A stretch of 9,346 nucleotides of DNA. It comes from an uncultured archaeon. Lineage in GTDB: Archaea > Iainarchaeota > Iainarchaeia > Iainarchaeales > CSSED10-239. The DNA lies in the NCBI GenBank assembly GCA_964468895.1, contig CAYXWT010000030.1:1-9346 (forward strand), written 5' to 3'. Made by a program: the position numbers and the translations under genes. The stretch's first letter is position 1. Each line of letters begins with the position of its first letter. Positions 1,355-8,593 of this stretch are shown piece by piece. The notes beneath the pieces are model-generated. The model did no database searches, was not told the DNA's origin, and worked only from the letters and a program-made list of their open reading frames with translations.

Positions 1355-1388
1355 ACATTTTGGCAGAAATTGAACTAAAAGTCAAAAG
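1355..1388 (-). repeat. Cassette-boundary repeat copy R1 (degenerate, terminal copy of the array)
   Basis: + strand acattttggcagaaattgaactaaaagtcaaaag; 25/34 identical to copy R5. In - sense it reads tttAG-TTCAATT-TCTGC-CAAAATG-T. It lies 8 nt past the ATPase stop, between the two convergent genes. Confidence 0.7.
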
Positions 1389-1395
1389 TAGAGTT

Positions 1396-2661
1396 TTATT
1401 TTAGTAACCATTCGTATATAGGAATCATTTCTATAGTTTTTCCATTTATTTCTATTTTCTCTTTATATTCATAAGTTATAATTTCACCATAATCTAAATT
1501 AAATTTATTTAAAGCAGATAACAATCCTTCAATCTCTCTTTTTCTTGTATCTGCTTTTTTAAAAGCATAACAAACTTGTAATGCTTTAACTACTTTTCTA
1601 TTATTCAACACTAAAAAATCACATTCTTTATTATCTTTATCTCTATAATAATAAAAATTAGATTTAGGATTATTTCTCCATAATTCAATAAAAACTTGAT
1701 TTTCTAAAAATCTAGGTTCTCCTATTGAATATCCAAACCCAATTTTATTTAATAAACCATTATCAATACAATAAAATTTTTTTGAATATTTATTTAATTT
1801 TTGTAAAGATGAAGAAAATCTTTTTACTTCGAAAATTAAATATGTTAACTTAAGATAATCTATATAATTTGATATAGTAGTGATATTTTTAATATTAAAA
1901 TTATCTTTTAATGATTTATAAGTAAATTCATTAGTTGATAAAGATATAACATAATTACAAAAATCTTTAAATAAAGAAATATCTTTTATTTTAAATCGTT
2001 CAATTATATCTTTTGATACAATGTCAGAATAAATATTTAATAAAATAGAGGTATCATTTGCAATAACTACTTCTGGAAAACCCCCACATTTAAAATAATT
2101 TTTAAATTCTCTTATTATTTTGGTTTTAGTTTTTGTAGAATCCAAATCAATTTTTATATTTTTATATCTTAAATATTCTTTAAAAGAAAAAGGAAATAAA
2201 GTTTTATCAATATGTCTTCCTGTTAAATAAGTAGATAATTCTTTGCTTAACATATTTGAGTTTGAACCAGTTACAAAACATTTATAACCAATTTTTTTCA
2301 TTCTATTTACAAACTTATTCCAATTTGGTAATCCTTGTATTTCATCAAAGAAAAAAGCTTTTCTTTTTCCAAATTTTTCAAGAAATGTTTCATACAATAA
2401 TTGAAAATCTTCTGTAGTAAATTTAGAAATTCTTTCATCAGAAAAATCAAAATAATAAAAATCATCTTTATAATATAGATTAATTATCTGTTCTAAAAGA
2501 GTAGATTTACCACACCTTCTGACCCCTGAAATAATTGAGATGGCTGGATTTTTCACAAAAGAGTTTATATTTTTTAAATCATCTCTTAAAAGGGTATCTA
2601 AAACTCCTTTTAAATCTTCATATTGATCAGTAATTACATTTCTTAAATATTCTTTGTTCAT
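1396..2661 (-). CDS. AAA+ ATPase of the COG1373 type (AAA_14 N-domain plus DUF4143-like C-domain)
   Basis: Walker A GVRRCGKST and Walker B AFFFDEIQ. The downstream VTGSNSNMLSKELSTYLTGRHIDKTLFPFSFKEY stretch is typical of this family. The ORF-track start (GTG at 2670) is the GTG inside the SD GTGAT. ATG at 2661 (gtgatagctATG, MNKEYL...) is the more likely start. Confidence 0.85.
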   Translation of the reverse strand: MNKEYLRNVITDQYEDLKGVLDTLLRDDLKNINSFVKNPAISIISGVRRCGKSTLLEQIINLYYKDDFYYFDFSDERISKFTTEDFQLLYETFLEKFGKRKAFFFDEIQGLPNWNKFVNRMKKIGYKCFVTGSNSNMLSKELSTYLTGRHIDKTLFPFSFKEYLRYKNIKIDLDSTKTKTKIIREFKNYFKCGGFPEVVIANDTSILLNIYSDIVSKDIIERFKIKDISLFKDFCNYVISLSTNEFTYKSLKDNFNIKNITTISNYIDYLKLTYLIFEVKRFSSSLQKLNKYSKKFYCIDNGLLNKIGFGYSIGEPRFLENQVFIELWRNNPKSNFYYYRDKDNKECDFLVLNNRKVVKALQVCYAFKKADTRKREIEGLLSALNKFNLDYGEIITYEYKEKIEINGKTIEMIPIYEWLLK

Positions 2662-2690
2662 AGCTATCACAAATATAATATACTATAGAA

Positions 2691-2704
2691 ATATTTATAA
2701 ATAT
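2691..2704 (-). promoter_or_regulatory. TATA-like box upstream of the ATPase cassette gene
   Basis: The perfect A/T palindrome atatttataaatat lies 30-43 nt upstream of ATG 2661. Similar boxes occupy the same position before hicB and the RHH gene. Low specificity in DNA this AT-rich. Confidence 0.3.
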
Positions 2705-2763
2705 AATCTATTAGTAAAAGAGAATAACCTACATTATAGTCTATTTACAAAATAAGAAATAAA

Positions 2764-2797
2764 AGTCTTTGACAAGAATTGAACCAAAAGTTAAAAA
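2764..2797 (-). repeat. Cassette-boundary repeat copy R2
   Basis: + strand agtctttgacaagaattgaaccaaaagttaaaaa; 29/34 identical to R5. In - sense it reads tttGG-TTCAATT-CTTGT-CAAAGAC-T. It sits between the zinc-ribbon gene stop (2831) and the ATPase start (2661). Confidence 0.9.
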
Positions 2798-2830
2798 TGT
2801 CCTTTTTTTATTTTTGTAATATAATTAAAA

Positions 2831-6804: not shown

Positions 6805-6813
6805 TTATTTAAA
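6805..6813 (-). promoter_or_regulatory. TATA-like box upstream of hicBA
   Basis: The - sense TTTAAATAA lies 34-42 nt upstream of ATG 6771, the same spacing as in the ATPase and RHH cassettes. Confidence 0.3.
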
Positions 6814-6850
6814 GTTTTTGATTAAAATATTAAGATATACTCTTAACCAA

Positions 6851-6884
6851 ATCTTCTAACTGAAATTGAACCAAAGGTTAAAAG
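6851..6884 (-). repeat. Cassette-boundary repeat copy R6
   Basis: + strand atcttctaactgaaattgaaccaaaggttaaaag; 29/34 identical to R5. ttaacc (6843-6848) is complementary to ggttaa (6876-6881). Confidence 0.9.
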
Positions 6885-6994
6885 CGCTCTTTTATATTAA
6901 ATTCTGAAAGTTAATTATTATATTAAAAAATAAATAAAACAATAAGCTTTTAGATGTGTAAAATATTTATCACATTCAAGTTCTAAAAATAAAA
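6885..6994 (-). repeat. Extended non-coding homology block adjoining R6 (paralogous to 8594-8684)
   Basis: gcgctctttt follows the core in both copies. aaaaataaataaaacaataagcttttagatgtgtaaaatatttatcacattcaagttctaaaaataaa (6926-6994) aligns with 8614-8684 at about 85% identity by hand. R6 carries an extra insertion of about 23 nt. Confidence 0.75.
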
Positions 6995-7053
6995 GTTAAA
7001 ATTAATCAGCCAAAACTGAATAGTAAACAACATCACAACCAGTTCCAGTTTCA

Positions 7054-8517
7054 TTATCTAGATTTTTTATTTCTTAAAACAGTCACAGTTAATATAACTA
7101 AAAACAATGCACAAAGATATACAAACCAATCTCCAAACATAGAATAAATTGTTTTTCTACCATTAATAGGTACATCTACAACCATTGTATTATTTTCTGT
7201 AGTAAAAAAATCTTGATAGGATAGTACATTCCCTCTATAATCAGAAGCTATAGAAATTCCTTCATTTACTTGACTTACTACTGAAAAACCATTTTCTACA
7301 CCTCTAAATGAACCTGAATAAGTGTGCCCTGGGCTTATCATTCTGGTATCAAACTTAGGAACTAGTAAAATATCTATATTCTCCTTTCTTACAGTTCTTA
7401 TAAATCTTGGAAAGTCAGCATCAAAACAGATAATTGTTCCTATCTTTCCATAAGGTGTATTTATTGTATGAATAAATCCATCAGACTTAGATGAATACCA
7501 AGAAATGGTTTTTTCATATTCATATTCTAATTTTCCATCTGGATTAAACATTAATATTTTATTTTCTGCATAAGTTGAATCATAATGATAAGACAAAACT
7601 GCTGGTGCAAAATAGACTTTATTTTCTTTTGCAAAATCAGATGATCTTTTTATAAAAGCTATTTCATTTTCAGGATAAATTATACCTTGTATCTCTGACC
7701 AAAATATTATTTGGACACCAAAATCTACAGCCTTTTTACTTTTTTCAAATAATATGTTATTTAAATTATTTATTTCTCCAGAATATTTATTTATTTCTTC
7801 TCTTGGAGTATTTAGATCTATAATATTAGAGTAATCTGTAGAATGTTCTATTGTAATTCCTGCAATTTTTACAGTTTTGCCAGTAGGAATTGAAGTAGTA
7901 AAGTAAATACCTCCTACTAAGAGAACAACCATAGAAATCACTACAAATGTTACAGCTAATTGTTTTTCTTTAACAAAGTTAAATTTACTTTTCCATAAAG
8001 TTGCAACTGTACTTGAAAACCAAAACACTAAAAACGAAATTCCTGCAAGTCCAGTTATTGATGCAATTTGAATAAGTGGTTTAAAATCAAACTGAGATAT
8101 TGCAATTGAAGAAAAGGTTCCAAATGGAGCTAACCCTAAAAGCAAATCAAAAATAACATAAGTTGCTGGAAAGACTAGTGTTAATAATAAGCTACTTGTT
8201 TTCTTATAGAAATATTTATCTAATAATAATGCTAATAATATAGGAATCATTGTACAGATTGTTGCAATTATTTCTGTTTCTATTAACATTGACCAACCAC
8301 CATGTACTATAAAAAATTTGGGGAGGAATAATAATATTACTAAAATAAGATATTCATACCACTTATTTTGTTCTCTAAAATAGTATATAAAAAATATCAT
8401 CCCTATCCAAGGAACTAAAAACACACTGAACTTAAGACCAGTAAATGCTAATAAAAAACTAGCCATTAGAAGTAAAAGATATTTTGTAATTGTTTTATGA
8501 TTTTTTATAAAATTCAT
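7054..8517 (-). CDS. Lnt-like membrane carbon-nitrogen hydrolase (apolipoprotein N-acyltransferase architecture)
   Basis: About 200 aa of N-terminal TM helices are followed by a nitrilase-superfamily domain with candidate E-K-C residues (IIFWSE, YEYEKT, GTIICFDADFPRF). A C-terminal TM helix (WFVYLCALFLVILTVTVL) completes the Lnt topology. The middle LVPFGE-type motif is not conserved, so it is called Lnt-like only. Confidence 0.7.
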   Translation of the reverse strand: MNFIKNHKTITKYLLLLMASFLLAFTGLKFSVFLVPWIGMIFFIYYFREQNKWYEYLILVILLFLPKFFIVHGGWSMLIETEIIATICTMIPILLALLLDKYFYKKTSSLLLTLVFPATYVIFDLLLGLAPFGTFSSIAISQFDFKPLIQIASITGLAGISFLVFWFSSTVATLWKSKFNFVKEKQLAVTFVVISMVVLLVGGIYFTTSIPTGKTVKIAGITIEHSTDYSNIIDLNTPREEINKYSGEINNLNNILFEKSKKAVDFGVQIIFWSEIQGIIYPENEIAFIKRSSDFAKENKVYFAPAVLSYHYDSTYAENKILMFNPDGKLEYEYEKTISWYSSKSDGFIHTINTPYGKIGTIICFDADFPRFIRTVRKENIDILLVPKFDTRMISPGHTYSGSFRGVENGFSVVSQVNEGISIASDYRGNVLSYQDFFTTENNTMVVDVPINGRKTIYSMFGDWFVYLCALFLVILTVTVLRNKKSR

Positions 8518-8559
8518 ATATATTCATTCCTTTATATTAATAATTAAAGCCCTTCCTGG

Positions 8560-8593
8560 AGCTTCTGGCGGGAATTGAACCAAAGGTTAAAAG
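8560..8593 (-). repeat. Cassette-boundary repeat copy R7 (most tRNA-like copy)
   Basis: + strand agcttctggcgggaattgaaccaaaggttaaaag; 31/34 identical to R5. In - sense 8581-8557 reads GG-TTCAATT-CCCGC-CAGAAGC-T-CCA. It lies 43 nt upstream of the Lnt-like start. Confidence 0.9.

Follow-up and report, generated by a model that had tools for sequence, protein, structure and literature searches.

The 9,346-nt stretch analysed here (the window; contig CAYXWT010000030.1, assembly GCA_964468895.1) has a G+C content of 23.6% and belongs to an archaeon whose closest named organisms are Iainarchaeota, a DPANN phylum. Short co-oriented repeats divide a block of its minus-strand genes into small cassettes. 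The initial annotation described seven 34-nt copies, here R1 to R7, starting at 1355, 2764, 4394, 5209, 6286, 6851 and 8560. Their positions, single orientation, intergenic location and spacings (1409, 1630, 815, 1077, 565 and 1709 nt) are confirmed, as are the minus-strand sense of the genes between them and the identity of the copies to R5 of 23–31 positions (25, 29, 23, 26, 34, 29 and 31 of 34 for R1 to R7). The repeat is real but longer than described. The conserved unit is 40 nt and extends 6 nt further on the high-coordinate side (8560–8599 in R7). All seven copies stand, and a weak eighth, consisting of a left-arm remnant only, lies at 5594–5614 (minus strand) between the genes for a 148-aa HNH endonuclease and a 62-aa membrane protein. 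Alone this remnant is weak (4.4 bits, E = 6 with nhmmer), and it is listed for its position and orientation. Weight-matrix scores of the copies range from 29 to 64 bits against a best of about 12 in 30 shuffles, which removes chance as an explanation; a 22-mer core with up to three mismatches has four matches where 0.00 are expected.

The sequence of the unit on the gene strand is AGAGCGC-TTTT-AACCTTTGG (left arm) followed by TTCAATT-CCCGC-CAGAAGC-T (right arm). All copies lie on the minus strand. R7 (8560–8599), the joint between the adhesin-like and Lnt-like cassettes, is pristine, with the sequence AGAGCGCTTTTAACCTTTGG|TTCAATT|CCCGC|CAGAAGC|T. Its left arm occupies 8599–8580, a segment corresponding to a tRNA T-loop 8579–8573, and the T-stem 3′ and acceptor strands 8572–8560. 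R6 (6851–6890) has a perfect left arm, the end of the Lnt cassette, and five mismatches in the right arm that starts the hicBA cassette. R5 (6286–6325) joins the hicBA and HNH cassettes and contains the recombination junction described below, at 6307–6297. The other copies are decayed. R4 (5209–5248) has five mismatches in the left arm and eight in the right, R3 (4394–4433) has lost most of its left arm while the right arm is still recognisable (match 4394–4419), and R2 (2764–2803) is followed by R1 (1355–1394), which lies 1 nt past the stop codon of an ATPase gene and faces a convergent plus-strand gene.

The genes between the sites, all on the minus strand, are functionally unrelated. Upstream of R7 lies the 3′ part of a gene for a large adhesin-like surface protein (8737–9346) with GGLVG-type repeats, which in another locus, L048, is an open frame of 643 aa with Glug and Fn3_assoc domains. 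The repeats of this gene (9130–9346; L048 3354–5282) are 81-nt tandem units encoding GGLVG-type (Glug-like) motifs; every assembly breaks inside them, and the DNA to the right of the adhesin, upstream of the array, is beyond reach. The next cassette, 1709 nt from site to site, holds a gene for a 487-aa Lnt-like protein with LNT_N and CN_hydrolase domains (7054–8517); no record matches the window's protein exactly, and other strains differ from it by one residue. A toxin–antitoxin cassette follows (565 nt from site to site; hicB 6565–6771, hicA 6328–6561), then the phage-type HNH endonuclease gene (5662–6108; phrog_5200, 4e-44), the 62-aa membrane protein gene (5352–5540) and a disrupted membrane protein gene (4591–5157), split into ORFs (open reading frames) of 110 and 41 aa in the window and present as an intact 181-aa gene in L054 and L055. 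Between R3 and R2 there are four genes (2831–4334), for a 91-aa ORF, a 93-aa RelE-like toxin, a TM2/zinc-ribbon protein and a zinc-ribbon membrane protein; the 91-aa ORF and the toxin (3777–4334; phrog_1213, 1e-6) probably form a second toxin–antitoxin module in the array. The last cassette gene of the window encodes an AAA_14/DUF4143 ATPase (1396–2670). Unrelated intact genes (hicA, the ATPase gene and a 159-aa gene) end 1–30 nt from a left arm; the stop codons of hicA and the ATPase gene, already noticed to lie near the repeat, are only 1–2 nt from the full unit. None of the window genes encodes a recombinase, as the initial annotation had stated.

The array does not end at R1, as had been proposed. 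In the source contig, L001, which extends to the left of the window (L-numbers denote the loci, or contigs, that we compared), three more copies co-oriented with those of the window lie at 2540–2579, 8187–8226 and 8297–8336, giving at least 11 sites within 17 kb, eight of them in the window and all on the tRNA-sense strand. The genes around the left-hand sites encode a DDE transposase, a genuine methionyl-tRNA synthetase (MetRS), a methyltransferase, a Fic protein, a ParE pair and an RNA ligase. Two of these units are just 110 nt apart (L001 8187–8336), an 'empty' cassette immediately downstream of the DDE (IS4-like) transposase gene. The MetRS gene (L001 6491–7972) lies between unit copies and scores 458 bits with the metG domain model against a cut-off of 336, and in L060 a gene of the aspartyl-tRNA synthetase (AspRS) type (5601–7007) comes directly after the array. 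Either the arrays adjoin essential chromosomal genes, or aminoacyl-tRNA synthetase genes sit within old cassettes.

The origin of the unit became visible in contigs of sister strains, which we retrieved from public assemblies with the window's 148-aa protein as the query. In L054, L058 and L059 a 47-nt 3′ fragment of tRNA-Thr lies exactly at the window's R7 or R5 position: in L054 it takes the place of the left arm at R7, with homology to the window from 8581, and in L058 and L059 it is found at R5. The fragment comprises the anticodon arm CAACC-TTGGTAA-GGTTG (anticodon GGT), the variable loop AGGTC, the T-arm GCGGG-TTCAATT-CCCGC, and the acceptor strand with discriminator, CAGAAGC-T. The Rfam tRNA model recognises it as a 5′-truncated tRNA at 34.3 bits (gathering score 29), and the right arm of R7 is identical to it over 22 nt. 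Intact tRNA-Thr(GGU) genes with the same 3′ end occur in L074 (9962–10033) and L075 (9875–9946), the only two found by ARAGORN among the loci scanned, and their 5′ strand is GCTTCTG, as predicted. In the window ARAGORN detected no tRNA; the fragments lack the 5′ part and are for that reason missed there and in most loci. An Rfam scan of the window gave chance-level matches only and no family at the sites.

Both halves of the unit can be placed on this tRNA. The right half corresponds to the T-loop, the 3′ strand of the T-stem, the acceptor strand and the discriminator, the 5′ strand of the T-stem being absent. The left half corresponds to the 3′ strand of the D-stem and the 5′ strand of the anticodon stem, with four T inserted: around tRNA positions 20–33 the tRNA has AGAGCGC-AACCTTGG where the unit has AGAGCGC-TTTT-AACCTTTGG, an alignment equalled by 4 of 5000 shuffles. 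The two halves are brought together by a deletion of about 18 nt, from the anticodon loop to the 5′ strand of the T-stem. Judged by these alignments, the whole unit is a rearranged 3′ portion of tRNA-Thr. Its 39-nt core is invariant and sharply bounded across no fewer than five distinct flank contexts, and it recurs with one mismatch in a second species; upstream of it only an A-run is conserved, except between the adhesin and Lnt cassettes. We rejected the idea that the left arm is DNA of a non-tRNA element, since the intact tRNA carries AGAGCGC-AACCTTGG. A decayed junction of an integrase gene fragment and its attachment (att) site was likewise rejected as the source of the unit, given that intact unrelated genes end 1–30 nt away and only the A-run is conserved upstream. 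The T-stem pair of the fragment differs between species, GCGAG/CTCGC in L064 (518–557) and L074 (19112–19158) as against GCGGG/CCCGC in L058 (1317–1363), and this compensatory change mirrors each host's intact tRNA. The R-type units in L064 retain CCCGCC, which suggests that a unit moves together with its cassette and is not a copy of the local tRNA.

The strains fall into four haplotypes, each found in independent samples. In H1 (L058, L059, L069–L073) a transglutaminase-like gene is followed by an R-type site, an 87-aa ORF that we call Int(N) for reasons given below, the tRNA-Thr fragment and then the HNH cassette, the HNH gene being the first past the fragment. H2 (L054) has the R-type site, Int(N) and the fragment followed by the Lnt cassette, R6, the hicBA cassette, R5 and the HNH cassette. 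H3, the arrangement of the window and L048, runs from the adhesin cassette through R7, Lnt, R6, hicBA and R5 to HNH. In H4 (L039 joined to L050; also L001 and L036) two further cassettes, one for a 1137-aa surface protein (3847 nt) and one for a methyltransferase-like protein (1123 nt), stand between adhesin and Lnt, with a core at each joint. What distinguishes the haplotypes is the presence or absence of entire cassettes, and the junctions fall within the unit, the outcome for which a comparison of strains had been suggested as a check on the initial annotation.

The clearest junction is that of H2. Across 2.28 kb (8581 to 6297, the Lnt and hicBA genes) H2 differs from the window at only two positions, whereas the next 84 nt (6296 to 6213) contain 17 differences, and there H2 is identical to H1. 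R5 of L054 is chimeric, with a left arm of the window-type hicBA cassette and a right arm of the H1 (L058-type) allele. This pattern confines the junction to the 11 nt GGTTCAATTCC (window 6307–6297), or the T-loop give or take two bases. An H1 chromosome that took up a circle cut out of an H3-like array between R7 and R5 would have exactly the structure of H2. Under homologous recombination one would expect a crossover in the long stretch of identical DNA further along, which would have brought the window-type patch with it. A chimeric assembly at the unit is unlikely, since assembly k-mers are far longer than 40 nt. The patch at 6213–6296, just past R5, comes in two allelic forms that diverge by about 20%, one in the window and L050, the other in L054 and L058, between flanks that are more than 99% identical; it holds a vestigial left-arm-like motif, GCTTTTAACC, and an inverted pair, AAGGTTAA and TTAACCTT, brackets the right arm of R5. 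The density of single-nucleotide polymorphisms between strains is also raised near R4, over 5026–5323, in the region of the disrupted membrane-protein gene. This cluster was not counted as a junction, being diffuse and not bounded by a site. Decay of the arms gives a further indication. Mismatches in the start arm and end arm of one cassette correlate (r = 0.90, p = 0.014, n = 6), whereas those in the two arms of one site do not (r = 0.28). Decay thus tracks cassettes and not sites, as it would if each cassette had its own age and crossover took place between the arms.

The recombinase linked to this locus is of the SSV type. An SSV-type integrase gene holds its own att site and is split upon integration (PMC7253208). 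The 87-aa ORF of the sister strains reads into the 47-nt tRNA fragment and has 13 homologues of 61–97 aa, some from metagenome-assembled genomes titled Candidatus (I)ainarchaeum; all but two end in translated tRNA sequence, ...LVRLRSRVQFPPEA. In L065 an ORF of this type with its fragment is followed, after a 1-nt frameshift, by a contiguous 271-aa ORF (3581–4396) that matches Pfam PF16795, archaeal phage integrase (1.4e-28, 100 bits against a cut-off of 27), and the catalytic-domain structures of SSV1 integrase, 3VCF, 4DKS and 3UXU, at 1.5e-8. Two full-length proteins of 343–344 aa, P0089 and P0091, unite the same N-terminus, the tRNA-encoded stretch and the catalytic domain. Homology to L065, P0089 and P0091 shows that the 87-aa ORF is the stump, Int(N), of an integrase of the SSV type (type I, 'suicidal'). 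The complete chromosomal layout can be read in L074, where housekeeping genes with tRNA-His and tRNA-Thr are followed by the C-terminal integrase part, Int(C), an element of 9.1 kb, Int(N) together with the tRNA fragment, and an R-type array; L075 shares with it the synteny tRNA-His ... HSP20 - tRNA-Thr - Int(C). The relatives combine an att site in the tRNA 3′ part, its position inside a split integrase ORF and a PF16795/SSV1 catalytic domain, the marks of an SSV-type integration module. The initial annotation had named an SSV-type enzyme among its candidates, and in sister strains and relatives a tyrosine integrase of this type is indeed linked to this tRNA-Thr site.

Some details of these loci deserve mention. 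In L058 the Int(N) start codon is preceded, at a distance of 96 nt, by an R-type unit (998–1037), so that Int(N) and the tRNA fragment are bracketed like a cassette; beyond this site a search for an Int(C) remnant gave no significant similarity, and the remainder of the SSV-type element, Int(C) included, was not found in the window's species. L065 (Ga0643558_0015407) carries Int(N), att and Int(C) in one stretch (3351–4396) within a chromosomal array, with the 1-nt frameshift between them, and 2.9 kb upstream a second, decayed Int(N)-att with an Int(C)-like tail of about 40 aa (456–809). This arrangement is the reconstituted-integrase configuration of tandem integration, which is stated not to have been observed in the data set of Badel et al. 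2020 (PMC7253208).

Comparable arrays occur in other lineages. Wherever an array head was reached (L034, L054/L058, L060, L064/L074), it is the Int(N)-tRNA-Thr fragment. From there L034 continues with Fic, a site, an ATPase and a methyltransferase gene, and another site; L060 with a radical SAM gene, a site and an ATPase gene before the chromosomal AspRS gene; and L064 and L074 with a HicA pair, a 111-aa gene and an NYN gene, each followed by a site. Clear sites lie on the tRNA-sense strand in every locus, the opposite strand giving only three sub-threshold nhmmer matches (E ≥ 1.9; L060 and L075). A scan of viral contigs yielded 27 single chance matches for the unit and none for the 43-nt tRNA-Thr att, and no free virus or plasmid form was found.

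Taken together, we consider it probable that the repeats are attachment-site scars at a tRNA-Thr(GGU) integration hotspot of an Iainarchaeota-like (DPANN) archaeon, which integrase-less cassettes join and leave by site-specific recombination. The initial annotation had left the choice between an integron cassette array and serial site-specific insertions. The tRNA-Thr att scars and the cassette polymorphism favour serial insertion, while an integron finds no attC hairpin, no R''/R' pair and no IntI here. A cassette would carry its own copy of the right arm at its start, one to four genes and the left arm at its end, and no integrase. Its entry and exit would take place through conservative site-specific recombination, the crossover falling in or beside the T-loop heptamer, and each insertion would shift the previous T-loop-to-3′-end copy downstream. 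The array would then grow from the tRNA side while older sites decay by AT-biased mutation. Cassettes may move as circles, as the structure of H2 indirectly suggests, and the predicted junction of an Lnt circle would read from the Lnt 3′ end through AGAGCGCTTTTAACCTTTGG|TTCAATTCCCGCCAGAAGCT to CCAGGAAGGGC. An SSV-type tyrosine recombinase may act in trans on the 40-nt units, a suggestion that draws on co-occurrence alone, arrays starting at Int(N)-tRNA-Thr fragments in four lineages. It is possible, though we judge it rather doubtful, that Iainarchaeota DPANN own an integron-like mode of gene capture whose evolution was independent of integrons. In it, integrase-less cassettes of one to four genes would each bear a 40-bp mimic of tRNA-Thr, rearranged to the point where just its T-loop side matches, and a tyrosine recombinase provided in trans would capture them, excise them and exchange them between strains at the T-loop of tRNA-Thr or of the displaced fragment; the simplest candidate is the SSV-type 'suicidal' integrase aimed at this tRNA. 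An integration site left with a stump, and 'dead', would then gain a second life as a cassette platform.

Several points weigh against this interpretation. No integrase gene, whole or split, is present in the window or the 10 kb to its left, where no PF16795 gene and no recombinase in any segment was detected, and in the window's own species the Int(N) stump alone was seen and no working enzyme located. By analogy with SSV1, integrases of this type are thought to cut at the anticodon loop (PMC8371274); the junctions here lie at the T-loop and may be the work of another recombinase. The interpretation gives no account of how unrelated genes each came to have the same 20-nt left arm. The arm-decay test is the weaker line of evidence, resting on six cassettes. 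Coverage is of genome fragments, and there may be copies elsewhere in the chromosome; L041, which shows the archaeal EF-1alpha-S10 gene order, and L047 have one unit each, following genes with no established link to tRNA-Thr.

These single copies are what one might expect of a genome-wide co-oriented intergenic repeat, similar to repetitive extragenic palindromes (REPs) or miniature inverted-repeat transposable elements (MITEs), or of a terminator or RNA-processing signal in which recombination is incidental. The unit always lies downstream of a gene in sense orientation and contains T-runs and two short hairpins, as such a signal would. We find this very unlikely, because strains differ by whole cassettes and never by the 40-nt unit alone, the array heads reached all start at the Int(N)-tRNA-Thr fragment, there is neither a fold signal nor an Rfam family at the sites, and a terminator has no need of 39 nt kept invariant across species. 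Less improbable, though still unlikely, is that the scars are genuine and the cassettes immobile: a few large elements would have inserted in tandem at tRNA-Thr and decayed, the strain differences being homologous deletions between direct repeats of 22–40 nt. In archaea both tandem integration and the loss of integrase genes are on record (PMC8371274), the cassettes encode no recombinase, and all differences observed among H1, H3 and H4 can be written as deletions between identical cores. Such a history leaves several observations without a place, however. Intact unrelated genes end so close to the left arm, within 1–30 nt, that there is no room for a decayed element backbone, and pristine 40-nt units bracket single genes (those for the 1137-aa protein, the methyltransferase and Lnt). 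The Lnt-hicBA block of H2 joins the H1 allele exactly at the T-loop, and arm decay follows cassettes rather than sites.

The two remaining explanations seem to us barely tenable. One is a canonical integron array without its integrase (CALIN), whose attC sites are recombined as folded single strands by IntI. Co-oriented cassettes with a site at the 3′ end of each gene and cargo such as toxin–antitoxin pairs are typical of these arrays, and integrons and CALINs exist in Archaea including DPANN (PMC9668308). The unit, however, is sequence-conserved and just 40 nt long, where an attC site is an imperfect palindrome of about 55–140 nt. Folded as single-stranded DNA, 81-nt windows (R7, R6, R5 and the L034 copy) gave z values of −0.05, 0.12, −1.85 (R5), −0.05 and 0.07 against shuffles, neither strand folding better than shuffled sequence, and no RYYYAAC/GTTRRRY pair occurs at attC spacing, the only approach to one being TTTTAAC-CTTTG-GTTCAAT, whose boxes are 5 nt apart and neither of which fits. 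The initial annotation had remarked that the repeat is unlike a canonical attC, and this is borne out: it has no hairpin fold and no core-site pair. Neither IntI nor attI was found, and no integrase in the window or L001; array heads in L054, L058, L060, L064 and L074 carry the SSV-type Int(N) stump instead, the unit derives from tRNA-Thr, and the only recombinase linked to the locus is of the SSV type (PF16795). Hardly more credible is a set of functional split-tRNA pieces, tRNA-Thr 3′ halves joined in trans as in Nanoarchaeum. In its favour, the host belongs to the DPANN archaea, and the T-arm of the fragment changes in a compensatory manner between species (GCGGG/CCCGC and GCGAG/CTCGC). In relatives tRNA-Thr(GGU) is ordinary and intact and shares the 3′ end of the fragment, so that the compensatory change merely mirrors the host tRNA. 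We rejected this reading on that ground together with two others: the 40-nt units, most of them decayed, have no T-stem 5′ strand, and the integrase N-terminal ORF overlaps the fragment.

The arrangement that we favour, att scars between which integrase-less cassettes move, has partial counterparts elsewhere. Cis-mobilizable elements (CIMEs) of Firmicutes, described by Pavlovic, Bellanger, Guedon and co-workers, are integrase-less, att-bounded segments that are lined up in tandem at the attB used by an integrase-bearing element and can be mobilised in trans. The window array is likewise made of recombinase-free segments in tandem bounded by direct att repeats, present or absent between strains with junctions in att. 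CIMEs differ in being decayed integrative and conjugative elements of several kb with recognisable backbones, whereas the units here are single-gene cassettes that share only the 40-bp site, and mobilisation in trans, known for CIMEs, is for the window cassettes something we infer. The pdif modules of Acinetobacter plasmids are small modules, often toxin–antitoxin pairs, bounded by XerC/D sites and shuffled without a recombinase of their own. They resemble the present cassettes as small accessory modules between short sites with no recombinase, but their sites are Xer sites of alternating orientation, whereas those of the window are all direct and derived from tRNA.

The nearest established kind is integration by SSV-type integrases at tRNA genes combined with accretion in tandem of segments flanked by att. 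Integrated archaeal elements with SSV-type integrases at tRNA genes were reportedly described by She et al. in 2001. Such elements use the 3′ part of a tRNA gene as att, their integrase gene contains this att and is split into Int(N) and Int(C) upon integration, and the displaced fragment forms a direct repeat (Badel et al. 2020, PMC7253208; PMC8371274), features shared by L074, L065 and L058. The window units differ in being a shortened and rearranged att, in flanking segments of 0.1–3.8 kb with one to four genes and no integrase stumps, and in numbering at least 11 sites in 17 kb. Their junction lies at the T-loop, where that of SSV1 is reported at the anticodon loop, and the host is a low-GC DPANN archaeon and not a hyperthermophile; DPANN are not mentioned in the 2021 review of archaeal integrated elements (PMC8371274). 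With integrons and CALINs (Ghaly et al. 2022, PMC9668308) the array shares promoter-proximal growth, co-oriented small accessory cassettes, a site at the 3′ end, toxin–antitoxin cargo and a crossover inside the site that makes each site a chimera of two cassettes. In contrast to those of integrons, its site is sequence-conserved, double-strand-like and tRNA-derived, with a recombinase of the SSV type and no attC hairpin, IntI or attI. Since archaeal integrons with canonical attC sites exist (PMC9668308), the array is not simply the archaeal form of an integron. Partial copies of tRNA 3′ ends are by-products of element integration (van der Gulik et al. 2023, PMC9897764); that study has one fragment per element of 9–23 kb, whereas here at least 11 rearranged fragments bound mini-cassettes.

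Scars in the form of tRNA fragments are routine. It is not routine for at least 11 of them to form an array that bounds integrase-less cassettes, mostly of one to four genes, with a conserved and rearranged 40-bp site in common. These loci also add low-GC Iainarchaeota to the hosts of split SSV-type integrases, which have been described chiefly from hyperthermophiles, and the 40-bp unit and the T-arm of tRNA-Thr make a concrete, testable pair of substrates. Our results, with cassette gain and loss between strains traced to a junction of 11 nt, suggest that small-genome DPANN archaea use a cassette platform, analogous to integrons and mechanistically unrelated to them, to diversify surface proteins, toxin–antitoxin pairs and other accessory genes.

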